From the NCBI GenBank assembly GCA_016700175.1, contig CP065003.1:1805238-1869237 (forward strand): a DNA stretch of 64,000 bases. Direction: 5' to 3'. The stretch is from Acidobacteriota bacterium. GTDB taxonomy: Bacteria > Acidobacteriota > Blastocatellia > Pyrinomonadales > Pyrinomonadaceae. Positions within the stretch are counted from its first letter, which is position 1. Each line of letters opens with the position of its first letter. The position numbers were made by a program, and so were the translations under genes. The notes below the pieces were generated by a model that saw only the letters and a program-made list of their open reading frames with translations, did no database searches and was not told where the DNA came from. This document shows positions 7,387 to 63,745 of the stretch, piece by piece.

Positions 7387-7459
7387 GCTGTGAGCTGTGA
7401 GCTGTGAGCTGTGAGCTGTGAGCTGTGAGCTGTGAGCTGTGAGCTGTGAGCTGTGAGCG
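7383..7459 (+). repeat. heptamer tandem array (GTGAGCT) x10 plus 1 variant
   Basis: Counted unit by unit. The stop codon of the S55 peptidase gene (7384-7386) is inside unit 1. Confidence 0.97.
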
Positions 7460-7505
7460 AATGTAGCGATGCCCTGCGTGATGTCAAGAGCTTTCTCCTG
7501 CTTAC

Positions 7506-7568
7506 CGCTCACTGCTCACCGCTCACCGCTCACTTTTTACCGCTCACTGCTCACCGCTCACTGCGTAC
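7506..7568 (+). repeat. heptamer tandem array (YGCTCAC) x9, inverted partner of 7383-7459
   Basis: Units CGCTCAC/TGCTCAC with two degenerate units. This is the reverse complement of GTGAGCR. Confidence 0.95.
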
Positions 7569-9684: not shown

Positions 9685-9761
9685 CACTCACTGCTCACCG
9701 CTCACGGCTCACTGCCCACTGCTCACTGCTCACTGCCCACTGCTCACTGCTCACCGCTTAC
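9685..9761 (+). repeat. heptamer tandem array (TGCTCAC/TGCCCAC family) x11
   Basis: Counted unit by unit. Overlaps the last 5 codons and the stop of the acyl-CoA ligase gene. Confidence 0.95.
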
Positions 9762-11342
9762 CTCTTTCTTAAGCGTCAACTTGTGGATCTTTCCCGTCCC
9801 GCCGATCGGGAGCTCGTCCCGGAACTCCACATAACGCGGATACTTGTTCGCCGCGAACTGCTCCTTGCACCAGTCGATGAACTCTTTCTCAGATAGCTCG
9901 GCTCCCTCGTTCAGGACGAGAAAAGCCTTCACTTCCTCTCCCATCTTCTCGTCCGGTACGCCGATCACGGCCACCAGAGACACCGCCGGATGCGTCATTA
10001 TCACTTCCTCGAGCTCGCGCGGATAGACGTTGTACCCACCGCGCAGGATCATGTCCTTCTTGCGGTCGACGATCTGCACGTAGCCGTCTTCGTCGATGAT
10101 CCCTATGTCGCCCGAATGGAACCAGCCGTTCTTGAAAGCTTCAGCGGTAGCCTCGGGCCGTTTGTAGTAGCCCTTCATCACGTTCGGACCGCGGATCACG
10201 ATCTCGCCGCGTTCGCCCGCCGGGACCGTCCTTCCTTCCTCGTCGACACACCGGACGTCCACACCCTGGATCGGCTGGCCGACCGTGCCGGGCTTCGAAG
10301 GCCTGTCGAAATGATTGAAGGTCGCGAGCGGCGATGTCTCAGACAAGCCGTAACCTTCGAGAATGCGCACGCCGAACATTTCGCCGAACTCGCGCATGAC
10401 TTCCACAGGCATCGGCGCGCCGCCGGAGGTCGGAACCTTGAAGAACTCTTTGATCTTCGACACGTCGCGGCCCGTCTGCTTCACGTACTGAAGAAGCGCC
10501 CAGTACATCGTCGGGACGCCGACCCAGAAGTTCACGCGCTCTTTTTCCATCGCGTCGAGCGTCGCCGCCGGATCGAACCTGGGGATCAAAACGACCCGGT
10601 TCCCCGCGAACATGTTCGTGTTCATCTGGACCGTCTGCCCGGTCGTGTGGAAAAGCGGAAGCGTGATCAGGCAGGTCATCTGACCGCCTCCGGTGAAATC
10701 CAGCACCGGAAGGTGAATGTTGTATGTCGTGCTTATGTTCGTGAAGAGGTTCAGGTGAGTGAGTTCCGCGCCTTTCGGCTGGCCGGTCGTGCCGGAAGTG
10801 TAAAGGATCGCGCAGGTGTCGTCCGGGTCCGTCGCGACCGTCTCGTACACGGCCGGCTTGTCATAGATCAGCTGGGTCAGCGTTCGATGGCCCTCGATCG
10901 GGCTCGGAGCAAGCTTGTCCGCCGTCATCACGACCAGGTGCTCGCATGTTCCGGCGCGGTCAAACCCTTCCTTGACCATCTGCGCCATGGGAAGTTCGTC
11001 CGTGCCTTCAAACACGAATACCGCCTTGGCGTCGGAATCCTCCAGGTGATACGCGATCTCCCTGGGCTTGAACAGCACGTTCAGAGGCACGACCGCGGCG
11101 CCCGCTTTGAGGATTCCGTAATAGACCATCGGAAAATACGGCAGGTTAGGACAGCTGAGCGCGACCTTGTCGCCCTTCTCGATCCCGAGTTCCCCGAGAG
11201 CGTGCGCGACGCGGTTCGCAAGCGCGTTCAGTTCCCCGTACGTCATCCTGACGTCGTTCCAGATCACCGCCTCCTTTTCAGGAGCGAGCCGCGCCTGATG
11301 CTCGATGATCGAGGCGAGATTTAACGTAGTTACTTTCCCCAT
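9744..11342 (-). CDS. long-chain fatty-acid--CoA ligase / AMP-dependent synthetase
   Basis: AMP-binding motif ILYTSGTTGQPKGA and the usual C-terminal GWFHSGD...GKI blocks. The last 5 codons and the stop lie in a heptamer array. Confidence 0.9.
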   Translation of the reverse strand: MGKVTTLNLASIIEHQARLAPEKEAVIWNDVRMTYGELNALANRVAHALGELGIEKGDKVALSCPNLPYFPMVYYGILKAGAAVVPLNVLFKPREIAYHLEDSDAKAVFVFEGTDELPMAQMVKEGFDRAGTCEHLVVMTADKLAPSPIEGHRTLTQLIYDKPAVYETVATDPDDTCAILYTSGTTGQPKGAELTHLNLFTNISTTYNIHLPVLDFTGGGQMTCLITLPLFHTTGQTVQMNTNMFAGNRVVLIPRFDPAATLDAMEKERVNFWVGVPTMYWALLQYVKQTGRDVSKIKEFFKVPTSGGAPMPVEVMREFGEMFGVRILEGYGLSETSPLATFNHFDRPSKPGTVGQPIQGVDVRCVDEEGRTVPAGERGEIVIRGPNVMKGYYKRPEATAEAFKNGWFHSGDIGIIDEDGYVQIVDRKKDMILRGGYNVYPRELEEVIMTHPAVSLVAVIGVPDEKMGEEVKAFLVLNEGAELSEKEFIDWCKEQFAANKYPRYVEFRDELPIGGTGKIHKLTLKKEVSGEQ

Positions 11343-11410: not shown

Positions 11411-11472
11411 GTTCAAAGTTCAAGGTTCAAAGTTCAAAGAGGCGAGCCGTGAGCAGTGAGCGGTGAGCAGTG
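11411..11472 (+). repeat. (GTTCAAR) x4 followed by (GTGAGCR) x3
   Basis: 11411-11438 and 11449-11472. Two word families lie side by side. Confidence 0.9.
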
Positions 11473-11576: not shown

Positions 11577-11723
11577 TCTTGAATTTTGAACCTTCAACCT
11601 TGAACTTTGAACTTTGAACCTTGAACCTTGAACCTTGAACCTTGAACCTTGAACCTTGAACCTTGAACTTTGAACTTTGAACCTTGAACCTTGAACCTTG
11701 AACCTTGAACTTTGAACCTTGAA
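11577..11723 (+). repeat. heptamer tandem array (CYTTGAA) x21
   Basis: 147 nt equals exactly 21 units. It is the inverted partner of 11411-11438. The 74-aa tracked ORF here is just its translation. Confidence 0.97.
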
Positions 11724-11766: not shown

Positions 11767-12534
11767 TCAAACCGTCATCCCGCCGTCGACCACGATCGTC
11801 TGCCCCGTCACGTAAGAAGAGGCATCGGACGCGAGGAACACCGCGGCGCCTTTCAGTTCGCCTTCCTCGCCGATCCTCGGGATCGGGTTGTTCTCGCGGA
11901 TAGCATTCTCGTAAATGTCGATCACCGGATCGGCGAGCCTCGATCGGAAGAATCCCGGAGCGATCGCATTGACGCGGATCCCCCTTCTTCCCCAGCTTGC
12001 CGCAAGCTCGCGGGTAAGCCCGATCAGCCCCGCCTTGCTCGCTACGTAGCCTGCGTAAAAAGGTCCGTTGGCCGACGAGGTGATCCCTGAAATGGACGTG
12101 ATGTTGATGATCGAACCGCTTCCCTGCTTCAGCATCTCGCGGCCCGCCGCCTGTGCGAAGAGAAAGCAGCCGGTCAGATTCACGTCCACGACCTTCTGCC
12201 ACTTTTCGAGCGGCATCTCCTCGGGCATCGCCCCCCACGAAATGCCCGCGTTGTTGATCAGGATATCGACCTTGCCGAACTTTTCGACCGTCGCATCGAC
12301 GACCGTCTGAACCTCGTCGGCCACTGAGGTGTCGCAGAGCATCGACTCGACCTCGAATCCGCGGCCTTTGAACTCCTCGACCGTTTCATCCAGCCATTCC
12401 GCGCGCCTTGCGCACAGCATCAGCGAAGCGCCCGCTTCCGCCAGGCCCTCCGCCATCTCTTTACCCAGCCCTCGCGATCCGCCGGTGACGATCGCAGACC
12501 GACCTGTGAGATCGAACAATTCCATTACGCTCAT
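11767..12534 (-). CDS. SDR-family oxidoreductase
   Basis: TGGSRGLG cofactor motif and YVASK catalytic YxxxK. Starts 6 nt downstream of the kinase stop on the same strand. Confidence 0.9.
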   Translation of the reverse strand: MSVMELFDLTGRSAIVTGGSRGLGKEMAEGLAEAGASLMLCARRAEWLDETVEEFKGRGFEVESMLCDTSVADEVQTVVDATVEKFGKVDILINNAGISWGAMPEEMPLEKWQKVVDVNLTGCFLFAQAAGREMLKQGSGSIINITSISGITSSANGPFYAGYVASKAGLIGLTRELAASWGRRGIRVNAIAPGFFRSRLADPVIDIYENAIRENNPIPRIGEEGELKGAAVFLASDASSYVTGQTIVVDGGMTV

Positions 12535-19334: not shown

Positions 19335-22300
19335 CTACGTCCCGAATTTGGCGCGGATCTTCACCGCCCGTTCGAGCCCGTCGACGTTCTCCAGGATCTT
19401 CCTTTTCAGGTCGGCATCAAGCTTTGGATTCGCTTCCAAAAAACGGTTCACGATCTGCAAGGCCTCTTCGCTCTTCTGCCCGCCGATGAACGAGCCGAGC
19501 CAATTGTTCACGAAGAAGATCTTTCGGTTGCGTTTCAAAGCCGGCAGTTCGGCGAGCGCTTCGTCGAGATAAGGGAGCGTAAGTTCCGAATGCGAAGGCG
19601 AATTCCAGACGCCCGACGCCTCCTCGATCCAGCTTTCGGAGATCTCCTTGTTCTCGGTGAAATCCTTCCAGTACTTCGCCTTGTTCTCTTTAGTCGCGAA
19701 TCCCGCCTTCGCGGCGTATGCCCAACGGAGCGCCGCGTCGTCCTTCTCGGTCTTTTCGAGCTCGGCGAGGAACTTCGCCCCGTCCGGATCGCCGGCGACT
19801 ATCAGGCGCGTGGCGATGTCGAAGCGGTCTTTCGGGCGGACAGGAAAGGGAGTACTGAGAGATGAGTACTGAGTACTGAGATTGCCCCCTGAATTGAGGT
19901 TCAGGTTTGAGTCTGTGGGCCCCTTCTCAGTCCTCAGTACTCTCTTCTCAGTACTCGAACCGCCTTCGGCTTTTGCTGGGCTACCATCCGTCGCTCCTCC
20001 GGAGCGAAGATCGACACCCGTCTCCGGTCTTCGGTCTCCCGTCTCCTGACTTCTGACTTCTGACTCCTCTGCCCCGTCTCCCGTCTCCGGTCTTCGGTCT
20101 CCCGTCTCCGGTCTTCGGTCTCCCGTCTCCTGACTTCTGACTTCTGACTCCTCTGCCCCGTCTCCCGTCTCCGGTCTCCCGTCTCCCTTGCGGAACAGTT
20201 CCTTCAGCGCCGCCCTCGCCCTTTCTCCTTTCGCAACGCCCAGCAAGGCTCGGAAATACGTGATCCTCTGCCCTACGGTCGGCGCGCCGTAGATCTTGTC
20301 GACAAGCAGCGCCTCGAGCTTCTGCGTGACCTCGTCCTGCTGTTTTTCCGAAAGGTAATACGTATAGGCGTACGCCACCCGGCCGAGGATCGACGAGATC
20401 GTCGTCTCGTCCTTCTCGATGTCGATATTCGCGATCGCGAGGTTTATGTAATCGAGCGGCGCGAGCTCGGCGAACCGGACCGAATCCCAGAGGCTGCCCC
20501 ACATCTGCGCGCGGAAAAACTCGTCCTTCTCGTCTCGTATGTTCTTGAGGATGTAGTTCCGGCTCTTTTCATCGAGCAGGAAAATCCCATAGCCGTAATC
20601 GCGGTAATTGGGGAATATCAGAATGGTCTTGCGCTCGTTTAACTTCGGTGGCTCAGACGAGTAATCGTCCTTTTTCTTGGCTTCGCTCTCATCGTCAAGA
20701 GGAAAGAGAAACTCCCTGCGTCTTGTGATCGAGTTGGATTCAAGGTCAGGCAACCTCGCATACGCTCTGTACCCAATTGGAATTCTTTCGATTCTCGTTT
20801 CACCATTCTCAAATACTCTGAGAACTTGAATATCCTGAAGCCAGTTGTAGTTAGCTTCGGGCAATATCGGCTCTTGAAGCATGTAGTCATTGAGAACAGT
20901 ATGTCCTCCATGGGCTCCGCATGAACGAGTAAATCCTGGGAGATCAGCAATGGGATTCGGGTCGCTCATCAAACAGTCTGACGGGCGATAAACGGCGGTT
21001 CCGGGCTTCGAAACCCAGTACCATGCCCACTCACTTCTCACGTGCCACTTGGTGAAATCAATCAGCGCTTGCTTGTCGGAATCACTTAGCTTCTTGAAGA
21101 ATTCTCGCTCAGACTCCTTTCTCACCCGAATGTAGGCGATTTCGTCCACTAGATCATGCCAGGTTGCGTTTCCGAATTCATGGCTATTCAGAAATTGACG
21201 TACAGCCTCCCTGAAAATCTCCTCGCCCCAAAAGAACTCAGCTTGCTTTAAGAACGATGGGGCCTTCTGATACACGATATTTCCGTAAGCAGATTTTGCC
21301 GCGCTCAAGTTCGGGAGTTCTTGATGGATTGGAGTAGTCCCACTTGTAACGTCTGTTTGGTAAGCGGCGCTCTTAGTCCGCTGATAGAAGACCTTCCAGG
21401 GATCGTATTCGGGAAGGACCTTCTCCATCGTCTTGTACGCCATGAACGTGGCGAATCCTTCCTTCAGCCAAAGGTCGTCGAACCACTTCATCGTGACCGT
21501 GTCGCCGAACCACTGGTGGGCCGCCTCGTGAAAGATGACCGACGCGCGCGAGATGTAGTTGTTCGCGGTCGGTTCGGTCGGGAAAATGACGGACGTCTCG
21601 CGGAGGAACGTCGCGCCTGCGTGCTCCATTCCGCCGAAAGGAAATTCGGGGATCAAGACGACATAGTACTTCGGAAACGGGAAAGGGTAGTCGAAATAGT
21701 CCTCGAGATACTCGATCGCCTCGCGGTTGAGGCGGAATACCTCTTCGACCGGAGCGACTGGAGCGCGGGCGCTTGGACCGCGGGCGTCCTCGCCCGCATC
21801 TGTGTTCCCGACTGGAGCGCGGGCGGCCTCGCCCGCATCCGCCGCCTGTGGCGGCAAGAGTTTATGCGCCTGTGATTTCCGGACGAAGATACGAATCGGA
21901 ACGCGGTCGGAGGGCCCGTCGCTACCGCTCCGGGTACTGAGTGGCTCCTGAATCACCTCAAACGGTCCCGCCGCGAACGCGAAAACGTAAGTACTGATCG
22001 GCTTAGTTTCTTCAAAGCCGACGTACCGACGCTCTGCTAGTTTCTTACGGTATTCTTCGGCTTCGCTTCTTACGGAGGGTCCGATGCCGGGCCGCGTACG
22101 TGAAGTATCGATACCTCCATTGCTAATCGCGACCCAGTCCTTCGGAATATCCATCGACAACAGGAAGCGCGCTTTCAAATCCGGTTGATCAAAGACCGGG
22201 AAGGCCGTCGAAGCATCCGAGGGAACGAATAGCGAGTAGATATACTCTGAGCCATCCTCCGTGTCTTTGTATCTCGTCACCGCGGCTCCCGACGTCAGGA

Positions 22301-22712
22301 TCGGTGAACTAAAATTGAGGACTAACTTGTTTCGGCCTTGCCGCACGCCTTTTCGAAATATCAAATGCTCTTCTACTTCAACGAATTCCGCTTCACGATC
22401 ATTCAGCCTTACGTAGGAGAGGGTTGAGCGTTGTTCGTGACCCGCGATTTTCCGCCAATCAAGCACGATCGGGACATCCTCGTCGGAGGATTCCTTGCGG
22501 ATGTCCACTGAGATCTCCAGTCTTCCTTCGAGTCTGTCCGACGCTTTCTCAGTCCAATCGATCCAAACATCGACCTTGTATCGGACATTTGAATAGTGCT
22601 CGGCGCGCCATTTTGCGAGCTCGAGCGGGACGCCCGGCTCGATCGAAGGAGCTTGTGCGTTTGCGGTCATGGCAAAAAAGAAGAGGGCGAAGATTCCCAA
22701 GAGTATTTTCAT
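19335..22712 (-). CDS. M1-family zinc aminopeptidase, secreted, with repeat-derived inserts
   Basis: Signal peptide, exopeptidase motif GGMEHAG, zinc motif HEAAHQWFGD followed by WLKEGFATF. At 1125 aa it is much longer than usual because of low-complexity inserts. Confidence 0.85.
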   Translation of the reverse strand: MKILLGIFALFFFAMTANAQAPSIEPGVPLELAKWRAEHYSNVRYKVDVWIDWTEKASDRLEGRLEISVDIRKESSDEDVPIVLDWRKIAGHEQRSTLSYVRLNDREAEFVEVEEHLIFRKGVRQGRNKLVLNFSSPILTSGAAVTRYKDTEDGSEYIYSLFVPSDASTAFPVFDQPDLKARFLLSMDIPKDWVAISNGGIDTSRTRPGIGPSVRSEAEEYRKKLAERRYVGFEETKPISTYVFAFAAGPFEVIQEPLSTRSGSDGPSDRVPIRIFVRKSQAHKLLPPQAADAGEAARAPVGNTDAGEDARGPSARAPVAPVEEVFRLNREAIEYLEDYFDYPFPFPKYYVVLIPEFPFGGMEHAGATFLRETSVIFPTEPTANNYISRASVIFHEAAHQWFGDTVTMKWFDDLWLKEGFATFMAYKTMEKVLPEYDPWKVFYQRTKSAAYQTDVTSGTTPIHQELPNLSAAKSAYGNIVYQKAPSFLKQAEFFWGEEIFREAVRQFLNSHEFGNATWHDLVDEIAYIRVRKESEREFFKKLSDSDKQALIDFTKWHVRSEWAWYWVSKPGTAVYRPSDCLMSDPNPIADLPGFTRSCGAHGGHTVLNDYMLQEPILPEANYNWLQDIQVLRVFENGETRIERIPIGYRAYARLPDLESNSITRRREFLFPLDDESEAKKKDDYSSEPPKLNERKTILIFPNYRDYGYGIFLLDEKSRNYILKNIRDEKDEFFRAQMWGSLWDSVRFAELAPLDYINLAIANIDIEKDETTISSILGRVAYAYTYYLSEKQQDEVTQKLEALLVDKIYGAPTVGQRITYFRALLGVAKGERARAALKELFRKGDGRPETGDGAEESEVRSQETGDRRPETGDRRPETGDGAEESEVRSQETGDRRPETGVDLRSGGATDGSPAKAEGGSSTEKRVLRTEKGPTDSNLNLNSGGNLSTQYSSLSTPFPVRPKDRFDIATRLIVAGDPDGAKFLAELEKTEKDDAALRWAYAAKAGFATKENKAKYWKDFTENKEISESWIEEASGVWNSPSHSELTLPYLDEALAELPALKRNRKIFFVNNWLGSFIGGQKSEEALQIVNRFLEANPKLDADLKRKILENVDGLERAVKIRAKFGT
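19851..19960. repeat. inverted GTACTGA-type heptamer arms inside the M1 aminopeptidase CDS
   Basis: AGTACTGAGAGATGAGTACTGAGTACTGAG ... CTCAGTCCTCAGTACTCTCTTCTCAGTACT. Translated in frame as ...STEKRVLRTEKGPTDSNLNLNSGGNLSTQYSSLST... Confidence 0.9.
20019..20186 (+). repeat. 24-unit heptamer array inside the M1 aminopeptidase CDS
   Basis: Units CGTCTCC/GGTCTTC/GGTCTCC/TGACTTC/TGACTCC/TCTGCCC in unbroken phase. 168 nt = 24 x 7 = 56 codons. Confidence 0.95.
21756..21840. repeat. two module-C hairpins inside the M1 aminopeptidase CDS
   Basis: GCGGGCG-TCCT-CGCCCGC (21780-21797) and GCGGGCG-GCCT-CGCCCGC (21819-21836). The same hairpin occurs at 8130-8147 and 51015-51032. Confidence 0.9.
21910..21940. 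repeat. fragment of the 39109-39296 element arm inside the M1 CDS
   Basis: GAGGGCCCGTCGCTACCGCTCCGGGTACTGA compared with AGAGGGCCGGTCGCTACCGCTCCCGGTACTGA. Confidence 0.8.
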
Positions 22713-23598: not shown

Positions 23599-23696
23599 CA
23601 CTCTCAGTACTCAGCACTCATCTCTCAGTACTCAGTACTCAGTACTCAGTACTCAGCACTCATCTCTCAGCACCGCTCACCGCTCACTGCTCACAG
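23599..23696 (+). repeat. 14-unit heptamer array (AGTACTC family merging into GCTCAC family)
   Basis: Counted in phase from 23599. The TonB stop codon (23691-23693) lies in the last unit. Confidence 0.93.
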
Positions 23697-25106
23697 ATTG
23701 AAATTGAAGCTGATGAATCCCGTAGCCTTTACCGGCTGGCCGTCGCGCGTGAACGGTCGGAACTTCCATTTCCTGACAGCGTCTTCCGCCGCGCGGGTCA
23801 GCATCGGAGGCCCGTCAGCGTTATTGACCTCCGCCACCGAGCCGTCTTCGTCAACGATGATCTTCACCGTCACGACACCCGTAAGGCGCATCGTCCTCGC
23901 CTGGCGCGGATAGATAGGGCTCACGCGGCGCGTCGCATATCCAATCAGAGACCCGATCGGAAGAGGCCCCGTCGGTTCTTCTACAGAGCTGTCCTTTTCG
24001 GTAACATCGTCCGCCGTAAGCGCACTCTTCACGTTCGGCTGGTCTTCCGGATCGGCCTCGCGGCTTTCGTCACGCTTGGCAGACCCTATGACGCGCACCG
24101 GCCTGTCGTTCGGATCGAGGTCCTTGTCGACCTTTGCCGGCTCAGGATCCTTTTTCACTTCTTCAGGCTTCTTCGCGACAGTGTTCGAGGCCGGCTTGTT
24201 CTCTTCTCTTGGGGGAGTTCTTTCGAGCGGGATAGGAATAGTTTTCCGTTCCGGCTTCTTCTCCGCGACCGTGTCAGCGGCGGGGATCGCAGCAAGCGGT
24301 TGCTCCGCGGGCTTCTCGTCCTCTTCGATCACCGCCAGATCGTCGCTGTCGATCTTCGAAGAAGCGACATCCGCCTCCTTTTCTTCAACCGGCGGCGGAT
24401 TCGTCGCGCTCAGGATAACGCTCCTCGACGCGACCATCTGCTCGCGCGCGTCAGCAAGCTGGTCTTTCCACTGTTTGGCGTCGTATGCGTCCCGCGCAAG
24501 CGCTCCGCGGGCGGAACTCGATTCTTCGAGAAGGGCCGAAGCGTTGGACTGCAGATCTTTGTCGGCGGTCATCGACTTCGAATGCTCGATGACCATCTCG
24601 AGCGTCTCGCGCATTCCCTGGATGTCGGCGATCGCGACGGTCGGCAGGTTGCGGTCGTTGATGTTCAGACCGAGCGATCTGTACCGATCAGACTGCGACC
24701 TCGCGCTGTTCACTACCTGGCCCGCGACGGCAAGATAGTCGAAAGACGCGTCCGACCCCTTCGAATCCTGCGATTCCTTCAAAAGGGACTTTGCCTTCGG
24801 GTAATCCGAAAGCTCGAGATACGCGTGCATCAGAAGGACGTTCACGACGCGGTTCACAGCCGGCTCCGTGTTCTCGCGCTTGATGTTCTCAAGCTCGTAG
24901 ATCGCCGCCGCAAAATTGCGCACCGCCAGCAACGCCTTCGATTTGGAGATGCGCTCGCGCATCACCTCGGCGGACGTAGGCGCCTTCTCGATCGCCGCCT
25001 TGGCGATCGTAGTGTCAGCTGGCGTGTTTTCCTGGGAAAAGGTCTGAAAAGAAAGGCTGAGTATGAATGCAAAAATAAAGACCGGTAATACGGTTCTCTG
25101 GGACAT
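23691..25106 (-). CDS. TonB-family protein with N-terminal TPR-like region
   Basis: Signal/anchor, Pro/Glu/Lys-rich linker and C-terminal TonB domain (YPRQARTMRLTGVVTVKIIVDEDGSV...). Confidence 0.8.
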   Translation of the reverse strand: MSQRTVLPVFIFAFILSLSFQTFSQENTPADTTIAKAAIEKAPTSAEVMRERISKSKALLAVRNFAAAIYELENIKRENTEPAVNRVVNVLLMHAYLELSDYPKAKSLLKESQDSKGSDASFDYLAVAGQVVNSARSQSDRYRSLGLNINDRNLPTVAIADIQGMRETLEMVIEHSKSMTADKDLQSNASALLEESSSARGALARDAYDAKQWKDQLADAREQMVASRSVILSATNPPPVEEKEADVASSKIDSDDLAVIEEDEKPAEQPLAAIPAADTVAEKKPERKTIPIPLERTPPREENKPASNTVAKKPEEVKKDPEPAKVDKDLDPNDRPVRVIGSAKRDESREADPEDQPNVKSALTADDVTEKDSSVEEPTGPLPIGSLIGYATRRVSPIYPRQARTMRLTGVVTVKIIVDEDGSVAEVNNADGPPMLTRAAEDAVRKWKFRPFTRDGQPVKATGFISFNFNL

Positions 25107-35342: not shown

Positions 35343-35510
35343 CCTACGCCATTCTTAGCCCAGATCATCGATAAATGTTGAAAAGATTGGCCGCTTTGGG
35401 CTAAAGTCGAGCCGCGGGCGCCCGTTCGGGAGTCCTCGGCTCGTTCAATCTACGGTGGCAGATCGATGGTCGTGAAATTTGGAAACTGGAGTCTGGGAAT
35501 CGGTTCCGAA

Positions 35511-37058
35511 ATGACGGAAATCGCAAGGAAACCGCTCGCTCTCGTAATTCTCGACGGCTGGGGCTATTCCCCTGTGCGCGAAGGGAACGCCATCGCCCTC
35601 GCTCACACGCCGAATTACGACCGGATCTGCGCGGAATTCCCTTCCACGTTGCTTGCCGCTTCGGGTGAGAGGGTCGGCCTGGCGAACGGAGCCGCGGGCG
35701 ATTCGGAGGTCGGCCATCTCGCGATCGGCACGGGCCGGATCGTAAAGGGCATCGAGCACAAAATCCTCGCCTCGATCGACGACGGCTCTTTCTTCGAAAA
35801 TCCCGCATTGAACGCCGCCTATGATTCCGCGAACGCGCGCGGGTCGGCCATCCATCTGATCGGGCTTGTTTCCGACGGCGGCGTACATTCCACACTTCAA
35901 ACATTGTTCGCGCTCCTTCGCCTTGCCAAGAAGAAAGGGATCACGGAAAACGTCTTTGTCCACGCCATACTCGACGGCAAGGACGTTGCACAGCGAACCG
36001 CCGACGTTTACATCGAAATGCTCGGTATCAAGCTCGCCGAGATCGGGATCGGCAAGGTTGCGACGCTCTGCGGAAGGCATTACGCGATGGATTCCTCGCA
36101 GAACTGGGACCGGACCGTGCGTGCGTTCACGATGCTGGTGCATTCCGAAGGCGAGCCGGCGAACGATCCCGTTGAAGCCATTCACGGATCGTTCCTTCGG
36201 GGCATCTCCGATGAGTTCATCCAGCCTGTCATCATCGGGAACGGGAACGGCGAGCCGGTCGGAAAGATCAGGGACGGCGATTCTGTCGTGTTCTTCAATC
36301 ACCGGCCTGACGGTATGCGACAGCTCGCAAGGACCCTGGCAGTTTCAGAAATTGGCGAAGAAGGATTCGGGAAGCCGAAGATCGCCGCGGTGTGCCTGAC
36401 CGAATACGACGAGAACTTCGAGCTGCCGGTAGCATTCAAGGATTCGGAACAGGCCGAGGGACTGGCGCGGGTCTTCGCCGAAAACGGCATATACAACTGC
36501 AGGGTTTCTGAGGCAGACAAATTCCGGTACGTGACCCAGTTCTTTAACGGCGGCACCGGCAGCAAACATCCGTGCGAACAAAGGATCGCGGTGCCCGCGC
36601 GTCCGGACCCCGCTCACGAAGCTCCCGAAATGGGATCGTTCAAGGTCACCGACCGGCTGCTTCGGGGCCTGGAAGAAGGCGACAACGAGGTGTTCGTCGT
36701 CAATCTTTCAGCCGCGGACATCGTCGCTCATTCCGGGAATCTGGAGAAGACTGTCGAAGCGGTCCAGTTCGTCGATACCTGCCTGGGCGGGATAGTCGGC
36801 AAGGTTCTGGAGGTCGGAGGAGCGGCGATCGTGACGGCCGACCACGGGAACATCGAGCAGATGATCGACCCGCGGACCGGAAGGCCCGATCCGCACCACA
36901 CCTCGAACCCAGTTCCCTTTCACCTGATCACTTCCGATCCTTCCTCATATATTCTGCGCGACGGCGGCGCGCTCGAGGACATCGCTCCGACGATGCTCGG
37001 TATCCTCGGGCTCGAGAAGCCTGAGGAGATGACCGGGCGGGACCTCAGACTCAGCTGA
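35511..37058 (+). CDS. gpmI: 2,3-bisphosphoglycerate-independent phosphoglycerate mutase
   Basis: LVILDGWG and GLVSDGGVHS motifs. Start set at ATG 35511 (MTEIARKPLALVILDGWG). Confidence 0.93.
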   Translation: MTEIARKPLALVILDGWGYSPVREGNAIALAHTPNYDRICAEFPSTLLAASGERVGLANGAAGDSEVGHLAIGTGRIVKGIEHKILASIDDGSFFENPALNAAYDSANARGSAIHLIGLVSDGGVHSTLQTLFALLRLAKKKGITENVFVHAILDGKDVAQRTADVYIEMLGIKLAEIGIGKVATLCGRHYAMDSSQNWDRTVRAFTMLVHSEGEPANDPVEAIHGSFLRGISDEFIQPVIIGNGNGEPVGKIRDGDSVVFFNHRPDGMRQLARTLAVSEIGEEGFGKPKIAAVCLTEYDENFELPVAFKDSEQAEGLARVFAENGIYNCRVSEADKFRYVTQFFNGGTGSKHPCEQRIAVPARPDPAHEAPEMGSFKVTDRLLRGLEEGDNEVFVVNLSAADIVAHSGNLEKTVEAVQFVDTCLGGIVGKVLEVGGAAIVTADHGNIEQMIDPRTGRPDPHHTSNPVPFHLITSDPSSYILRDGGALEDIAPTMLGILGLEKPEEMTGRDLRLS

Positions 37059-37061: not shown

Positions 37062-37124
37062 GTTCAAGGTTCCAGGTTCAAGGTTCAAGATTCGCGGTTC
37101 AAAATTCCAGGTTCAAAGTTCAAA
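37062..37124 (+). repeat. heptamer tandem array (GTTCAAG family) x9
   Basis: Starts 4 nt after the gpmI stop codon. Same word as 11411-11438. Confidence 0.93.
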
Positions 37125-43133: not shown

Positions 43134-43189
43134 GCTTCAGCCTGTCGAAGTCCGCGCTTTCGCGCGGCGCAAGCTGAGGTCCGCGCGAC
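43128..43189. repeat. hairpin module D plus module B (minus orientation)
   Basis: CGATAGGC-TTCA-GCCTGTCG (43128-43147) contains the M15 gene stop codon. Diverged module B at 43152-43189. Confidence 0.88.
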
Positions 43190-43223: not shown

Positions 43224-44351
43224 ATGAAATCCAAAATGAAGGCTCTGCTGTCGATGCTTATCGTAGCGTCGTTTGCACTTTCGACGCACGCGTCCGGTCC
43301 GTCGAATTCTTTAGAGGACGGCACGGTCCCGGGTTCGGTCTGCAGATCCGGCGATTTCCCTAGCCATACGTTCGACGAATCGCAGGTCTTTCCAAAGGAC
43401 AAAGGCCTGCTGCATCCGGAGGATGGAAGGGCGCTTTCTGACGGGCGGATCATCGTCGGCGACGAGGAATCTGGACTGCGGATCATCGAAAAGGACGGGA
43501 GCAGCCGCGGATTCGGACGGTTCAAGGCAGCCGGCTGGGTGCACGATCCTCCGAGGGTAACCGCCGGTCCGAACGGAATGTTTCTGGAAAACGATGGCCG
43601 CCATCTGCTTCTCGCCGACGTTTATAACGGACGGATCTACCGGGTCGACACCAGAACTGAAGAGGTGACGCTGGTCTATTCTCACCCGTACGGGATCAAC
43701 AGTGTGATACGTGACAGCAATGGAACGATCTGGTTTACGCAGTCGGCGAAGAACCCTCCGGAGAGAGGATTCCGGGACTTGTTCGCCGCTGTCGACCGTC
43801 CCGTTGCATCCGGGGCGGTTTTCTATTTGCGGGGTTCCGGAAACAACGTCGAATTGCCTGCAATGGAGGCGGCGTCGGATATTTACTTCTCCAACGGCTT
43901 AGCGCTCGACGACGAAGAAAAGTATCTGTATGTCGCCGAGACGATGATGGACCGCGTTTTGCGATTCCGCATAGATGTGGCGAAACGGGCTCTTTCGAAT
44001 CGGGAAACATACCAGTACGTGGTGACACCCGACAATCTGGCCTTTGACAAGCACGGAAATCTTTACGCCGCTTCGCCGATCAGCAATTCGGTTCTCGCGA
44101 TCGACAAAAAGTGCCGAAGCGTTCACACGGTCTTCTCGGCACCGTCTGAAAGCAACTCGAAAGCTCAAAACAAGTGGATCGAGAACAGCCGTCTCGGCAA
44201 GCCCCTGCTTGAACTGTTTACTCCGGAGGTCTGGAACCCGCTGCCCGGCGGTCTCACAGGAATGTTCTGGTCGCAGGATCATAAGACGCTGTATGTTACG
44301 GGGCTGGGCAATGCGATCCTGAAGGTCGATCTTGGGACGGGTCGAAAGTGA
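43224..44351 (+). CDS. secreted SMP-30/gluconolactonase/strictosidine-synthase-like beta-propeller protein
   Basis: Signal peptide and repeated propeller blades (DSNGTIWFTQS, SNGLALD, FDKHGNLYAA). Confidence 0.75.
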   Translation: MKSKMKALLSMLIVASFALSTHASGPSNSLEDGTVPGSVCRSGDFPSHTFDESQVFPKDKGLLHPEDGRALSDGRIIVGDEESGLRIIEKDGSSRGFGRFKAAGWVHDPPRVTAGPNGMFLENDGRHLLLADVYNGRIYRVDTRTEEVTLVYSHPYGINSVIRDSNGTIWFTQSAKNPPERGFRDLFAAVDRPVASGAVFYLRGSGNNVELPAMEAASDIYFSNGLALDDEEKYLYVAETMMDRVLRFRIDVAKRALSNRETYQYVVTPDNLAFDKHGNLYAASPISNSVLAIDKKCRSVHTVFSAPSESNSKAQNKWIENSRLGKPLLELFTPEVWNPLPGGLTGMFWSQDHKTLYVTGLGNAILKVDLGTGRK

Positions 44352-44374
44352 TTTTGCAAGCGAGGCACACAGTC

Positions 44375-44417
44375 GAGGTAACGCGAACTTCAGTTTGCGC
44401 CGCGCGAAAGCGCGGAA
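44375..44417 (+). repeat. hairpin module B copy (loop GAAA)
   Basis: GAGGTAACGCGAACTTCAGTTTGCGCCGCGC-GAAA-GCGCGG, 24 nt after the SMP-30-like stop. Confidence 0.93.
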
Positions 44418-44444
44418 CCACGTTGGCCGCTCGGGCCGCTGCGT

Positions 44445-44563
44445 GAGGACTGAGGACTGAGGACTGAGGACTGAGGACTGAGGACTGAGGACTGAGGACT
44501 GAGGACTGAGGACTGAGGACTGAGGACTGAGGACTGAGGACTGAGGACTGAGGACTGAGGGAA
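44445..44563 (+). repeat. heptamer tandem array (GAGGACT) x16 plus 1 variant
   Basis: 112 nt of perfect units were counted. The 97-aa tracked minus-strand ORF is its translation. Confidence 0.97.
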
Positions 44564-44598
44564 GATAATCTATATGAATCGAGTGTCAAATATTTTGC

Positions 44599-44665
44599 TC
44601 AGTCCTCAGTCCTTTCGTCTCATTCCTCGCTTCTTTCTCAGTCCTCAGCCCTTTTATCTCAGTAC
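44599..44665 (+). repeat. degenerate CTCAGTC-type array, inverted partner of 44445-44563
   Basis: CTCAGTCCTCAGTCCTTTCGTCTCATTCCTCGCTTCTTTCTCAGTCCTCAGCCC... It ends 10 nt before the kinase ATG. Confidence 0.85.
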
Positions 44666-44674
44666 TTCTTATTG

Positions 44675-47623
44675 ATGCCCCTGAACCCCGGAGACACGTT
44701 AGGCAGATACACGATCGACTCGCAATTGGGAGCCGGCGGAATGGGTGAGGTATTCCTTGCCAGCGATCCGACCCTCGGGCGCAAGGTCGCGATCAAGATC
44801 CTCGGGAGCGACGTCTCCGATAACCCTGACAGTCTCGCCAGGTTCGTTCGCGAGGCGAAATCGGCATCGGCCCTCAACCACCCCAACATCCTTACAATTT
44901 ACGAAACCACCGAAGCCGGCGGCACGCAGTACATCGTCAGCGAGTACGTCGAAGGCCGTACGCTGAAGTCCAGATTGAAAGACGGAAGGCTGCCGCTGAC
45001 CCTCGCGCTGGAGATAGCAGTCCAGACCGCTTCCGCCCTCGCGGCGGCGCACGAGGCCGGGATAGTTCATCGCGACATCAAACCGGCTAACATAATGGTG
45101 CGCGAGGACGGGATCGTGAAGGTCGTCGATTTCGGCATCGCGAAACTTGTAGGGACCGGATTCGATCGGGAATCGAAGGGAGAAGCGCCCACGATCTCGA
45201 AGATAGGAACCGCGCCGGGAATGCTTATCGGGACTCCGAAATACATGTCTCCCGAGCAGGCTCGCGGCAAACCGGTCGATCACAGATCCGACATCTTCAG
45301 CTTCGGCCTCGTCCTGTTCGAGATGTTCGCCGGGCGGCCGGCATTCGAGGGCGAGAGCCCGATGGACGTGGTGAGCGCGATCCTGAAAGACCCCGTCCCG
45401 ACTCCGGGCGAGATCGTATCCGGGCTTCCGGAAGGCATCGACCGAATCGTGGATAAGTGCCTCAGGAAAGAAGTGAAGGAGCGCTATCAGAACGCGCGGG
45501 ATCTTCTGATCGATCTGACCGACATACGGGACGAGCTTCGTTTCAAGGAAAAGAGAATGCTCGGCGACGAGACCGTCGCGGCCAAAGTCGTCCACGTCAC
45601 GGAAAGCGATCCGGCGGCGGAGACCGGAAGTCTGACCGCAAACATCGTAAGGCGGCGCAGGTTCACTGTTCTGCACGTGATCGGACTGTTGATCCTGCTC
45701 CTGATCCCTGTCGGCGCGTACATCTGGTACGAGTCGAGCAGCCACGATGCCGCTTCGATCGCCGACAACACCGTCACGACAGAGCTGGCAAGCTGGAGCA
45801 GCGCTCCGGGCGAGCTGTTTAGCGTCGCAAGGTTCTCGCCGGACGGAAAACTGATCGCCTTCTCGTCCACGCGCTCGGGAAACAAGGACATTTGGGTGAT
45901 GCAGTCGAACTCGACCGAGGCAATCCAAATAACGAAGGACGAGTTCGCCAACACGGACCCGATTTGGTCGCCCGACGGATCGGAGATCGCCTATTTTTCC
46001 GACCGGGGAACGGGGGGCGAAAGCGAGGAGACAAGGACCGGCGTCTGGAGGATCTCGGCGCTCGGCGGTTCGCCGAGATCTGTCGGGCCGATCAAGGATG
46101 GAAGCAGCGAACTCCGCAGATGGACCACCGGGGGAAAGATCGTTTATCAGTCCGGCGGCGAGCTTTACGCAATGGATCCAGACAGCGGAGCCGCGGAAAA
46201 ACTGACAAGTTTCGGATCCGGAAGCGGCACTGTCTCCTGGGCCGACGTATCGGACGATCAGCAGCGAGTTTCGTTCGTCGTCAAGACCGGCGACAAGAAC
46301 TGGAAGCTGATGACGCGCGTCCTCTCGAATTCAGAGGCGGAAGAGGTGTATTCGGCCGACACCGATCTTTCGGACGTCGTATGGCTGCCCGCAACGGACG
46401 AATACTACTTCAGCGCGGACCGCGAAGGGACCGAACAGGTATTTTACCTGGCTACGGGCTCGTCGGAGCCGGTTCAGATCACCCGGAATCCCGCAAGCAG
46501 CGTCGTGGTCGATGCGTCCCCGGACGGCGGAAGCATTCTCTTTACGTCGGTCAGGGAAGAATCCGACGTCTGGAGCGTGGGAACCGCGACCTCCGAGGAA
46601 TCGCCGGTCGGGCGCGGTATCGATTCGGAGCTTTGGCCGGCCGTCAGCCCGGACGGTTCGCAGATCGTGTTCCAGTCAGTCCGCAATCTTGACCGCGGAA
46701 ACAGACTCCTTTCCTCGTCGCTTATGGTCAGGCCTCTGGGATCGTCGGCATCGGGGATCGAGCCCGTCGAGATCGCTGAAGGTGCCGCGCTGCCGCAATG
46801 GTCCCCCGATGGTTCGAAGATAGCGTTCTTCCGCGTCGGTGCTGACGGGAATTCGATCTGGGTCGTGAACGCCAGCGGCGGCGAAGAAAGGAAGGTCGCC
46901 GACAATGCCCAGTCGGTCTCCTATTCAGTTTCGCCGTACAACAGGGTCCACACAAAGGACATCGTGTGGCTGCCGGATTCGTCGGGCATTTTCTATTCCC
47001 ACAAGGAACCGTCGGCAACCTCGATCAGGATCGCGCGGCTTAACGGCGGCGCTCCAGGCCCGGTGTCGCCTCCGGTAAACGGCGAATCGCAGTACTGTCC
47101 GGTCATTTCAACCGAAGGGAACAGGCTCGCATTCTTTTCGCAGAGGAACGAGGGCGGCAAGGTCGTGCGGGCGATCTGGGCGACGGATTCGGACCTGAAA
47201 GATCCAAGGAAGATCTTCGAGACCGAACGGCTGATAAGACTGATCGGATGGGACAAAGGCGGCGAGAGCCTTGTCCTCGCGGAGGCGTCCAAGTTCAGCA
47301 GTCTTCCGGACGAAACCACGCTCCTCCGGCTCGGCCTTTCGGGAGGCGATCCGGAGCCGTTCGCGCGTTTGCAAAACGCCTATTACTACAATATCTTCCT
47401 TTCACCGGACAAAAAGACGATCGCTTTCGCGGCCCGCAAGGAGAACAGGGACGATATCTGGCTTGTTTCCGTAAGCGGGGGCGAGTCACGCAAGATTACC
47501 GGCAATAACGATTCGGAGTCCTACTTCTCCGCACTTTCGTGGGCGCCGGACAGCAGCGCCATATACTTTGGGAAACAAACGCGGTTTAGTTTGCTCTCCA
47601 AGATCACCGGCCTAAAGGAATAA
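44675..47623 (+). CDS. Ser/Thr protein kinase with TM helix and PD40/TolB-like beta-propeller sensor
   Basis: G-loop GAGGMG at aa 19-24, HRDIKPAN, DFG, SPEQ. C-terminal repeats of SPDG..IAF.S.R....DIW type. Confidence 0.9.
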   Translation: MPLNPGDTLGRYTIDSQLGAGGMGEVFLASDPTLGRKVAIKILGSDVSDNPDSLARFVREAKSASALNHPNILTIYETTEAGGTQYIVSEYVEGRTLKSRLKDGRLPLTLALEIAVQTASALAAAHEAGIVHRDIKPANIMVREDGIVKVVDFGIAKLVGTGFDRESKGEAPTISKIGTAPGMLIGTPKYMSPEQARGKPVDHRSDIFSFGLVLFEMFAGRPAFEGESPMDVVSAILKDPVPTPGEIVSGLPEGIDRIVDKCLRKEVKERYQNARDLLIDLTDIRDELRFKEKRMLGDETVAAKVVHVTESDPAAETGSLTANIVRRRRFTVLHVIGLLILLLIPVGAYIWYESSSHDAASIADNTVTTELASWSSAPGELFSVARFSPDGKLIAFSSTRSGNKDIWVMQSNSTEAIQITKDEFANTDPIWSPDGSEIAYFSDRGTGGESEETRTGVWRISALGGSPRSVGPIKDGSSELRRWTTGGKIVYQSGGELYAMDPDSGAAEKLTSFGSGSGTVSWADVSDDQQRVSFVVKTGDKNWKLMTRVLSNSEAEEVYSADTDLSDVVWLPATDEYYFSADREGTEQVFYLATGSSEPVQITRNPASSVVVDASPDGGSILFTSVREESDVWSVGTATSEESPVGRGIDSELWPAVSPDGSQIVFQSVRNLDRGNRLLSSSLMVRPLGSSASGIEPVEIAEGAALPQWSPDGSKIAFFRVGADGNSIWVVNASGGEERKVADNAQSVSYSVSPYNRVHTKDIVWLPDSSGIFYSHKEPSATSIRIARLNGGAPGPVSPPVNGESQYCPVISTEGNRLAFFSQRNEGGKVVRAIWATDSDLKDPRKIFETERLIRLIGWDKGGESLVLAEASKFSSLPDETTLLRLGLSGGDPEPFARLQNAYYYNIFLSPDKKTIAFAARKENRDDIWLVSVSGGESRKITGNNDSESYFSALSWAPDSSAIYFGKQTRFSLLSKITGLKE

Positions 47624-47633
47624 GGAGAATCAG

Positions 47634-48131: not shown

Positions 48132-48132
48132 T

Positions 48133-48175: not shown

Positions 48176-48202
48176 TCGCGGCGGCAGTTCGGGCCGCGGC
48201 CA

Positions 48203-48258
48203 GAGGACTGAGGACTGAGGACCGAGGACTGAGGACTGAGGACCGAGGACTGAGGACT
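48203..48258 (+). repeat. heptamer tandem array (GAGGACT/GAGGACC) x8
   Basis: Counted unit by unit. Confidence 0.95.
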
Positions 48259-48280
48259 GAAAGAAATTCATTTCCAAATT

Positions 48281-48301
48281 GATAGTTGATAGTTGATAGT
48301 T
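48281..48301 (+). repeat. heptamer tandem array (GATAGTT) x3
   Basis: GATAGTTGATAGTTGATAGTT. Confidence 0.9.
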
Positions 48302-48437
48302 GCGAGACCCGTATTTTCAGGCTTGGACAGCGCGTGCACTGGCAAGGATTTGCGATCAAAGACAATTCATCAATTTCCAATTTTCCATTGTCAATTAGCC
48401 TCAGACCTCAGTCCTTTTATCTCAGCCCTGAGTAGCT

Positions 48438-50924: not shown

Positions 50925-50943
50925 GACGTCGGAATTGAAACCC

Positions 50944-62240: not shown

Positions 62241-63461
62241 TCACCGCTCACTGTCGACGCGCTCTCTTCGAATCCCGTAGCCGATGAATCTCGCCGGGAT
62301 ATTCCTGACGAAGCGGAACCGCAAAAGAAAACGCAACCACCCGGGGAGACTCGGCGGCGTCTCCCGGTTCGATAGCGCCGCCGAGATGACCCGTTTCTGG
62401 GCCTGGATCTGGAACCACTGGACGATCTTCGTCGGCAAGATCCTTCGCGACTGGATCAGCGCCAGAACCTCTTCGGGCACATCTTCCTGTCGGAGCAGCG
62501 CGGGACCGAGCTTGTTCGCCGCCGCGACCGCGTCCTGGATCGCGAGGTTGATCCCGACGCCTCCAACCGGCGACATCGCGTGTGCCGCGTCGCCTATGAC
62601 GAGCAGGCCGGGCATATGCCATTTCTCGAGCCGGTCTACACGCACCTCGAGCGTCTTCACATCGTCCCAGCTCGCGGGAATCCCCGTCTCGTCGTCCAGA
62701 AAGTGCGCGACGCTTTCTACGGACCGTCTGAATTCCCCTATCGGCGTTTTTCTCAGTTCCGAATCGGCCCCTTTCGGCACGATGTAGGCAGCCTGCCAGT
62801 AATCGCTTCGGTTCAGAAGTATCATCATGTGGCCGGCGCCGACGATCGCGAAGGTCTCATCCGGGTGATCTTCGGAACGCGGCACCTTGAACCAGAGCAC
62901 GTCCATAGGCGCCCCGAACTCCTTCACCTTAAGCCCGGCCTGCTCGCGAAGCGCCGAATACCTTCCATCGCAGGCGACCGTAACCCGAGCTCGAAATTCA
63001 ACCGGTCCCTCCGGGCTTTCGGACCTTATGCCGACGCATTTTCCATCCTCAATTATCAATTCCTCCGCTTTATGCTGCATCCGCAGATCGAAATTCTCAA
63101 AACGCTGACCGAAGTCGGCGAGCAGGTCCAGGAAATCCCACTGCGGAACAAACGCCAGATAGTCGAACGGACGAAGTCCTCTAAAATCGACGACCTCCTG
63201 CAGCCGATCGCCGATGTGGACGCCGAGGTGGCGGACCTTGTTGTGGGGTAATTTCTCGAACTCGGAGAGGAGCTCTATCTGATCCAGGATCTCGAGTGTG
63301 GAGGGATGTACGGTGTCTCCGCGGAAGTCGCGTAGAAAATCGGCGTGCTTTTCAAGGACCGTCACATTGACGCCTTGGCGGGCGAGAAGAACGCCGAGCA
63401 TCATACCGGCGGGGCCTCCGCCGGCGATGACGCATCCAGAATGTGCAGTTGATCCGGACAC
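62241..63461 (-). CDS. FAD-dependent monooxygenase/oxidoreductase
   Basis: GGGPAGMMLG dinucleotide-binding motif and GDAAHAMSPVGGVGINLAIQDA second FAD motif. Confidence 0.85.
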   Translation of the reverse strand: MSGSTAHSGCVIAGGGPAGMMLGVLLARQGVNVTVLEKHADFLRDFRGDTVHPSTLEILDQIELLSEFEKLPHNKVRHLGVHIGDRLQEVVDFRGLRPFDYLAFVPQWDFLDLLADFGQRFENFDLRMQHKAEELIIEDGKCVGIRSESPEGPVEFRARVTVACDGRYSALREQAGLKVKEFGAPMDVLWFKVPRSEDHPDETFAIVGAGHMMILLNRSDYWQAAYIVPKGADSELRKTPIGEFRRSVESVAHFLDDETGIPASWDDVKTLEVRVDRLEKWHMPGLLVIGDAAHAMSPVGGVGINLAIQDAVAAANKLGPALLRQEDVPEEVLALIQSRRILPTKIVQWFQIQAQKRVISAALSNRETPPSLPGWLRFLLRFRFVRNIPARFIGYGIRRERVDSER

Positions 63462-63473: not shown

Positions 63474-63745
63474 TTCAGAAGTCTGAAGTCAGGAGTCAGG
63501 ACAAAAGGAAGAAAGAGAAACAGGATGGACAGGAAGTTAGAGAAACAGGATGGACAGGATGTCGAGGATTCTGCTCCACTATCGACCGCCGCTGGGCTCT
63601 TTCATTCCGGCCTTTGAAATATGCCGAATAGCATTCAGGTTATCGTGTTTATCCTGTCTATCCTGTTTCTCTTCCCCTGACTCCGGACTCCTGACTCCTG
63701 ACTTCTGACTTCTGACTTCTGACTTCTGACTTCTGACTTCTGAAG
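63474..63745. repeat. nested composite palindrome
   Basis: Outer TCAGAAG-type units x4 (63474-63501) face (YCTGACT) x10 (63676-63745). Inner AAACAGGATGGACAGGA x2 faces TTTATCCTGTCTATCCTGTTTC. Confidence 0.92.

Follow-up and report, generated by a model that had tools for sequence, protein, structure and literature searches.

Within a 64-kb stretch of DNA from a soil acidobacterium of the Pyrinomonadaceae (Acidobacteriota, Blastocatellia), hereafter called the window, tandem arrays of 7-nt words recur as inverted pairs in which one array faces a second array of the reverse-complement word across a spacer of 37–176 nt. This inverted pairing is genuine and for the most part specific to heptamers. 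We refer to the purine- or G-rich array of a pair as its R arm and to the pyrimidine- or C-rich reverse-complement array as its Y arm; the longest arm in the window measures 146 nt. A convergent-pair layout of this kind has already been reported in Xanthomonas (2015), and judging from the sequences it recurs here without G-quadruplex sequences and with many different words. Our preferred reading, a tentative one that we consider quite possible, is that these pairs would form transcribed RNA hairpins at gene junctions that are built from slippage-prone heptamer repeats.

Short tandem repeats of the window are dominated by this one period, with 17 period-7 arrays (1214 nt) compared to a single array of period 9 and none of periods 5, 6, or 8, and the non-redundant arrays of Pyrinomonadaceae loci include 43 with period 7. 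Array density is high in the window and in two related loci, i.e., L001 from an Aridibacter metagenome-assembled genome (MAG) and L002 from a second relative carrying arrays, and it is near zero in loci L003, L004, L006, L008, and L009. The window genome uses at least seven word families (GAGGACT, GTGAGCN, GTTCAAG, AGTCAGA, TTGATAG, TTGAGAA, and others) in window arrays of 2.3 to 24 copies with no mode at four, and a 21-bp super-period that corresponds to two helical turns is visible in several of them. All six inverted pairs listed in an earlier sequence-only reading of this DNA are present where it had placed them, and the reverse-complement periodic scores of their flanks range from 15 to 105, whereas the window null has its median at 6 and its 95th percentile at ca. 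8.5. Across the window and nine related loci, 6 of 22 adjacent array pairs are reverse-complement related, where permutation of the words gives an expectation of 1.2 (P=0.0016).

Metagenome contigs scanned for (GAGGACT)x4 provided 120 independent loci, around which we searched for partners within a radius of 300 nt. Inverted partners were found downstream of 36 of 110 GAGGACT arrays and upstream of 10 of 118, compared to a null of 2.2%, and direct partners in the same orientation amounted to 2–4%. GAGGACT is the word by which these loci had been ascertained, and counts were also made without it: on these contigs, heptamer arrays of other words, for which no selection by word applied, are paired in 72 of 157 cases (46%), compared to 9 of 66 (14%) for arrays with periods of 8, 10, and 11. 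The preference for an inverted partner within a few hundred nucleotides that the sequence-only reading had proposed is therefore borne out by the metagenome loci. Two of its generalizations did not survive, namely that each long array has a partner and that one arm is always expanded. At least four sizeable window arrays (listed as unpaired in Table 1) lack an inverted partner within 300 nt, one pair (19850/19926) is symmetric, and the median arm-length ratio is 1.3 in a set of 97 inverted heptamer pairs from all sources. With a ratio of two or more in only 21% of these 97 pairs and neither side systematically longer, arm-length asymmetry was rejected as a general rule.

The hairpin potential ascribed to the six pairs was confirmed by folding both RNA and single-stranded DNA (ssDNA), in which inter-arm pairing takes up 77–100% of the shorter arm, with z-scores of -3.4 to -9.5 for RNA and -3.1 to -8.0 for ssDNA. 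Some pairs are nested, i.e., arms of TTGATAG lie inside arms of GAGGACT, and arms of AACAGGAT lie inside arms of CTGACTT. In the former case, the inner arm at 48279..48302 pairs with a degenerate stretch rich in CAATT and TCAAT at ca. 48366-48397; in the latter, the pair 63474/63676 encloses the inner inverted arrays AACAGGAT.../...ATCCTGTT. Nested heptamer pairs are also found in L062, a contig of Candidatus Sumerlaeota.

All five co-directional pairs of the window, on both strands, have their long homogeneous arm after the upstream stop codon, which lies inside the array at 7383 and at a distance of 2–92 nt elsewhere, and their short degenerate arm ends 4–68 nt ahead of the next start codon (Table 1). 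The side of the long arm flips with gene strand within the window, and the asymmetry therefore tracks the direction of transcription; for the same reason, we rejected a replication-direction bias for the long arm. By eye, stop-codon-adjacent arrays in the window, L001, and L002 are nearly all of the R form in sense and start-codon-adjacent arrays nearly all of the Y form, with one short array at 9624-9650 as an exception. At the metagenome loci, this stop/start orientation effect is weaker (30:7 and 33:17). Arrays past stop codons are G>C in sense at 33:17, and single GAGGACT arrays in co-directional gaps have their G-rich orientation in sense at 10:1. In a small sample of gaps, arrays occupy 0–1 of 6 divergent ones vs 11 of 21 others, and the five divergent gaps that were folded lack excess structure, which is present in most co-directional and convergent gaps. 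A 5'-leader role of the pairs, which had also been suggested, looks plausible from the sequence because four of the five co-directional sites have only 4–12 nt between the end of the Y arm and the start codon. A Shine-Dalgarno-like motif was found upstream of 13 of 41 window genes and of none of the array-preceded genes; low Shine-Dalgarno use is common to other heptamer-rich lineages (cyanobacteria, Bacteroidetes, and Beggiatoaceae). Products encoded downstream of arrays comprise Ser/Thr kinases, an HD-domain protein, an acyl-coenzyme A ligase, and a flavin adenine dinucleotide (FAD) monooxygenase, with no adhesins among them.

Table 1. Heptamer arrays and neighboring features of the window (REP, repetitive extragenic palindromic; CDS, coding sequence).
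Feature	Coordinates	Strand	Remarks
SMP-30/gluconolactonase-like gene	43224..44351	+	Pfam SGL E=3e-23; stop codon 92 nt ahead of R arm
REP-like module	44374..44420	+	two small GC hairpins, core CAGTTTGCGCCGCGCGNAAGCGCGG; dispersed, 7 window copies
Focal 5' R arm (TGAGGAC)x16.7	44444-44560; arm to 44563	+	100% perfect, G-rich, TGA in all three frames
Focal AT-rich loop, about 37 nt	44564..44597		contains TGTCAA (TTGACA on minus strand)
Focal 3' Y arm, degenerate CTCAGTC-type	44598-44665	+	phase shifts; reverse complement of R arm
Ser/Thr kinase gene with PD40 repeats	44675..47623	+	ATG 9 nt past Y arm; no Shine-Dalgarno motif
R arm (GTGAGCT)x10.9	7383..7459	+	perfect; includes stop codon of gene 5512..7386
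Y arm ([C/T]GCTCAC)x9	7500..7568	+	76% matches; ATG of HD-domain gene at 7576
Y arm in sense (CTTTGAA)x4.1	11411..11439	-	68 nt ahead of start codon of 9744..11342
Second short array	11444-11472		adjoins Y arm 11411..11439
R arm in sense (GTTCAAG)x20.9	11578..11723	-	43 nt past stop codon of 11767..12534
R arm (GAGGACT)x8.3	48203..48260	+	perfect at period 21; REP-like module just before
Inner nested arm (TTGATAG)x3.4	48279..48302	+	conserved in L001 and L002
Y arm CTCAGAC/CTCAGTC	48400..48433	+	degenerate; TPR Ser/Thr kinase ATG at 48438
Y arm in sense (CTGACTT/C)x3.6	63474..63501	-	12 nt ahead of start of 62241..63461
R arm in sense (AGTCAGA)x9.7	63676..63745	-	2-4 nt past stop codon (63748-63750) of gene leaving window
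Symmetric short pair GAGTACT x4.4 / CTCAGTA x4.4	19850..19958	-	in frame within M1 peptidase CDS
Unpaired array, R form in sense (CAGTGAG)	9687..9758	-	includes stop codon of 9744..11342
Unpaired 171-nt heptamer/21-mer array	20017..20187	-	in frame, M1 peptidase CDS; encodes GDRRPET/SEVRSQ repeats
Unpaired arrays, R form in sense	23603..23694	-	abut stop codon of 23691..25106
Unpaired (GTTCAAG)x8.9	37062..37123	+	3 nt past stop codon of 35466..37058
REP-like copies	8154-8178, 27129-27153, 43152-43176, 44391-44415, 48149-48173, 50985-51009, 51110-51134		

The arms have a fixed chirality, with the 5' arm being the more purine-rich one in 80 of the 97 pairs (P=6e-11), and this bias persists without GAGGACT (38:10) and by word family (30:5). 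With GAGGACT left out, it consists of a G>C skew (34:7) as opposed to an A>T skew (20:19), and non-tandem inverted repeats of the same DNA have no G>C bias (63:58), which weakened terminator thermodynamics as its cause. Stop codons are confined to the 5' arm in 24 pairs and to the 3' arm in 5, and the skew is gone (9:7) for words without a stop codon in either orientation. As a sole cause, stop codons fit the 24:5 distribution but fail for GTTCAAG, AGTCAGA, and the GGGAATC word of Xanthomonas, and they were rejected as such. G>C strand composition and stop-codon content cannot be separated here as causes of chirality.

The transcription terminator Rho prefers C-rich, G-poor, and unstructured RNA. 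An explanation of the chirality that we find improbable is that a polymerase nearing a gene from either side would make long C-rich, G-poor RNA as a Rho loading site and a polymerase leaving it would make G-rich RNA, so that the arrays would suppress antisense and untranslated read-in, while on legitimate read-through transcripts the C-rich arm would be masked by pairing with its G-rich counterpart. Such gating would agree with a skew that concerns G vs C and not A vs T, with its absence from ordinary inverted repeats that are too short to load Rho, and with the G-rich sense orientation of single GAGGACT arrays and of arrays past stop codons. However, stop-free words have no G>C bias, and with a C-rich leader directly ahead of their start codons, genuine mRNAs would become exposed to Rho themselves.

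At the focal junction around 44 kb, the minimum-free-energy fold has 85% of the Y arm paired to the R arm. The loop between these arms contains a promoter-like sequence on the minus strand (TTGACA-16-TATCTT at 44562-44589, 10/12 matches) that is directed into the R arm, and a TTGACA on the minus strand at 16 nt from a -10-like hexamer was also noticed by eye in the loops at 7460-7499 and, in L001, at 14413-14444. A promoter in such short loops would send antisense transcription into the long arm. As a general feature, the loop promoter was dropped, with TTGACA in only 7 of 97 loops and no enrichment; the comparison of these 97 loops revealed no common 6-mer, and their AT-richness is mild. The gluconolactonase-like gene upstream of this junction is 89% identical to its counterpart in the Aridibacter famidurans MAG and 63–71% identical to those of other Pyrinomonadaceae, and an exact-protein look-up with a window gene gave no match.

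Comparison with relatives shows that arms are conserved and loops are not. When the two kinase junctions of the window, L001, and L002 are aligned, the outer arms and the inner (TTGATAG)3 / TATCAATT arms align and the central loop does not. Copy number drifts; at one site, the R arm has 16.7 copies in the window and the Aridibacter MAG has 3.3, and the other site has 8.3, 6.4, and 7.1 copies. The expansion of one arm that had been proposed from the window alone is supported by the orthologues, in which the R arm differs in length while the Y arm is largely conserved in the Aridibacter MAG. The unpaired array at 37062..37123 likewise has an orthologue in L001 (3204-3251). The order of the kinase genes is swapped between the window (43224-50924) and L001 (10001-14882), with each gene keeping its own 3' arm and loop, and L001 contains an extra module of ca. 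170 nt with similar GCCGCTG ends between the REP-like unit and the GAGGACT arm. This suggests, on sequence grounds, recombination between repeated modules.

Such recombination is consistent with the arrays acting as DNA, e.g., as cruciforms, as replication or recombination hotspots, or as a platform for a repeat-recognizing protein, and the significant folds as ssDNA and the 21-bp super-period of several arrays would also fit this idea. We regard it as quite improbable overall. Long spacers and mismatched arms disfavor cruciform extrusion from duplex DNA, and the cruciforms envisaged by the sequence-only reading are unlikely because the spacers measure 37–176 nt and the arms are imperfect. In addition, one sequence-specific protein would hardly recognize the seven or more unrelated word families that this genome contains, and the arm asymmetry follows gene direction on both strands.

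Other dispersed modules accompany the arrays. The REP-like module (core CAGTTTGCGCCGCGCGNAAGCGCGG, two small GC hairpins) has seven matches in the window where none would be expected, lies directly upstream of both GAGGACT arms, and is present in two copies in the convergent gap 50925-51260. We also observed a hairpin element of ca. 150 nt in three copies (55620-55760, 55800-55950, and 61790-61940) with heptad-periodic stems (TTGATAG TTGAGAA TTGAAAG ... / CCATTCC CAATTCT CAATTCT) inside AACAGGAT.../...ATCCTGTT arms. Together with the fixed chirality of the arms, which would be expected of terminal inverted repeats, with the insertion or deletion of modules between species, and with an in-frame insertion in a coding sequence, these modules could point to a mobile hairpin element spread by a transposase, akin to MITEs (miniature inverted-repeat transposable elements), REP doublets forming hairpins (REPINs), or bacterial interspersed mosaic elements (BIMEs), with heptamer arrays as its terminal inverted repeats. 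This origin appears very improbable to us. Sites with GAGGACT arms have unrelated loops (37 and 139 nt), the words are many and different, arm length varies by whole heptads, and the pairs occupy orthologous positions that are stable across genera; no target-site duplication was noticed, though no systematic search for one was made.

According to our preferred reading of the pairs as transcribed RNA hairpins, two oppositely oriented arrays that share one 7-nt word would bridge an intergenic gap, with the G- or purine-rich version on whichever strand reads away from the neighboring gene. A transcript leaving the upstream gene would then comprise a G-rich arm, a loop, and a C/U-rich arm and would fold into a long imperfect RNA hairpin, the base of which would draw the upstream stop codon near the downstream start codon. 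This RNA hairpin would be the active form that punctuates the transcript as a barrier, processing site, or stabilizer, and the leader of the following gene, which lacks a Shine-Dalgarno motif, would be occluded by it. Slippage during replication or transcription would shift the copy number, chiefly in whichever arm is not under promoter and leader constraints, and this would produce a long perfect arm after the stop codon and a short decayed arm before the start codon. The sequence analysis shows the arrays, their pairing, chirality, position relative to genes, and folding potential, the conservation of arms but not loops, and the drift in copy number; that the arrays are transcribed, that RNA and not DNA is the active form, that the hairpins fold in vivo, and that they affect expression is inferred.

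Several observations weigh against this reading. The arms of the pair 7383/7500 have one systematic mismatch in each heptad, and the arms show no co-variation in relatives, with the 5' arm of L002 having drifted to GAAGACT and its 3' arm reading CTCAGTA, which results in weaker pairing. About half of all arrays have no partner, and a coding sequence contains one pair and one further array in frame, for which a role at gene junctions would be meaningless. Metagenome pairs show no preference for stop vs start neighbors, although gene calls are crude on these contigs. A consensus scan of 44300-44720 and 48100-48480 revealed no canonical stem-plus-T-run terminator in either arm pair; the bidirectional terminator function that had been suggested thus remains unproven, all the more as metagenome pairs adjoin start and stop codons equally. 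Rfam gave no matches at the gathering threshold across the 64 kb, and public sequencing runs contained no RNA with window sequence and one weak DNA match only.

The main rival reading, which we consider somewhat unlikely, is that the pairs are a non-adaptive by-product. With heptamers as the unit favored by polymerase slippage, arrays would arise and grow in unconstrained DNA, snap-back or template-switch copying would add inverted partners, and selection would only filter orientation near genes, e.g., by retaining in-sense stop codons downstream of a gene and by avoiding purine-rich pseudo-Shine-Dalgarno and start signals before it, while the hairpin itself would be functionless. Heptamers do dominate tandem repeats both here and in unrelated contigs, and their dominance has been reported for prokaryotes generally (Mrazek 2007, as cited in PMC4679880 and PMC4692102). 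Moreover, copy number is labile, arms homogenize independently without compensatory change, in-frame arrays invade a tolerant protein loop, the stop codon itself is often overlapped by arrays, and chirality follows stop content (24 vs 5) and is gone for stop-free words (9:7). However, the 46% same-word pairing is specific to period 7 and finds no explanation in slippage alone, and the short inner arms (TTGATAG x3 and their partner) are near invariant across the three species compared, in contrast to the scrambled loop that they enclose. The stop-free GGGAATC word of Xanthomonas also still follows the convergent rule (PMC4692102).

The latter arrays are the closest known relatives in layout. 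Rehm et al. (2015) described intergenic heptamer arrays of GGGAATC in Xanthomonas (and of GGGGAYT in Nostoc) that are over-represented, abut open reading frames (ORFs), and form 70–75 convergent pairs of plus- and minus-strand arrays per genome (PMC4692102). Their G-rich strand lies in sense within 50 bp after a stop codon or in antisense within 50 bp upstream of an ORF, they are rare between divergent genes, and most are transcribed, but no function was identified (PMC4692102). Array length differs among sister species while the single-or-pair type is kept, the arrays were interpreted via G-quadruplexes with a preference for four units, and GGGAATC keeps to the convergent rule even though it contains no stop codon in either orientation (PMC4692102). 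The arrays of the window share the period-7 excess, the convergent pairs with a G-rich 5' arm, and the strand rule at stop and start codons. They differ from the Xanthomonas class in that at least seven word families occur in one genome instead of one G-tract word, in that no window word contains a G3 tract and no four-unit mode is seen, and in featuring nested pairs, arms of up to 146 nt, one pair inside a coding sequence, and an occurrence in other phyla (Acidobacteriota and Sumerlaeota). Without a G3 tract in the words found here, the G-quadruplex explanation cannot be general.

In the 5' untranslated region of Haemophilus influenzae hmw1A, a perfect (ATCTTTC)n 5' arm and a degenerate complementary 3' arm form a hairpin upstream of the start codon that is cleaved by RNase III; copy number tunes expression, and extra repeats leave the fold unchanged (PMC12721329). 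The window pairs resemble it as predicted long imperfect hairpins that precede a start codon and combine a repeat arm with a degenerate complementary one. However, hmw1A is a single phase-variable adhesin locus with proven transcription and a pyrimidine-rich repeat arm, i.e., of opposite chirality, whereas the layout described here is genome-wide and lies beside housekeeping and kinase genes. TAACTGA repeats of Beggiatoaceae, cyanobacteria, and Bacteroidetes comprise 2–6 copies and occur in 169 direct sets vs one indirect set (PMC4679880). These repeats and the short tandemly repeated repetitive (STRR) heptamers of cyanobacteria are likewise intergenic, end a few nucleotides before start codons, and come with few Shine-Dalgarno sites, and the TAACTGA words are related to those found here (core nTGAnnn/ACTGA); yet they stand in forward orientation before start codons, where our arrays have the complement (CTCAGTn) on the sense strand. 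REP/BIME elements, REPINs, and Rickettsia palindromic elements are similar as dispersed extragenic hairpin modules that form inverted doublets in co-directional or convergent mosaics, and in-frame insertion into coding sequences is a further trait of the Rickettsia elements. REP, BIME, and REPIN units are palindromes of 20–40 nt that depend on REP-associated tyrosine transposases (RAYTs), in contrast to the slippage-varied tandem heptamer arms without internal palindrome seen here, beside which REP-like units typical of REP/BIME do coexist.

The arrays inside the M1 peptidase coding sequence (19335..22712, minus strand) lie at 19850-20187 in a hypervariable loop of the ERAP1_C domain. Pyrinomonadaceae homologues carry other low-complexity inserts in the same loop (SEPPALAGG; PTVMEGLVGGN x3), and locus L136 from the L002 genome has related in-frame arrays at the equivalent position (2949-3118), which recalls the in-frame insertions of Rickettsia palindromic elements. 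No gene was called at the expected N-terminal part of this peptidase in L136 (1-2500), where three further heptamer arrays are found (334-383, 1069-1099, and 1339-1362), and the gene may have been split or frameshifted by arrays. Elsewhere in the window, a perfect inverted repeat of ca. 36 bp (39111-39147/39264-39300, ca. 115 nt apart, RNA z -14.5) in a convergent gap sits within weak heptamer arms (39053-39073 and 39318-39344). Large intergenic tandem repeats at 22932-23597 and 37701-37949 (212 nt x1.8, 77 nt x3.1, and 102 nt x2.4) contain a recurring motif, CCCGTTTAGAGCAGCGCTTGCGCTGC, that is also present in L001. The convergent gap 19177-19334 forms a hairpin (z -6.5) with stems of 9-mer tandem units (CGCGAAGGT) and the G-rich arm on the 5' side; this genome therefore does not restrict the design of stems from tandem repeats strictly to heptamers.

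Among the long microsatellites of bacteria, heptamer repeats form the most over-represented class, and they have no accepted function. The recurrence of the layout with many words that cannot form G-quadruplexes, in Acidobacteriota, a Sumerlaeota contig, and array-bearing metagenome contigs of 32–71% GC, points to strand composition together with hairpin formation. Its rules are specific enough for testing, namely that pairing is specific to period 7, that the 5' arm is G>C, that the long arm follows the stop codon, and that arms are conserved while loops are free to vary. In practice, the arrays lead to inflated ORF calls, in which start codons become extended through the Y arm, and to broken assemblies, and they may be a driver of local changes in gene order. 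More broadly, and as a rather unlikely proposition at present, convergent heptamer pairs might represent a cross-phylum punctuation of gene boundaries that does not depend on G-quadruplexes and in which a repeat flanks every gene edge with its G-rich or stop-rich strand pointing away from the gene. If so, polymerases or ribosomes exiting a gene would meet G-rich, stop-laden RNA, and the C-rich RNA made by entering polymerases would be masked through hairpin formation or else exposed to Rho. For bacteria with few Shine-Dalgarno sites, the arrays would then provide an insulator that is tunable and can evolve by slippage.

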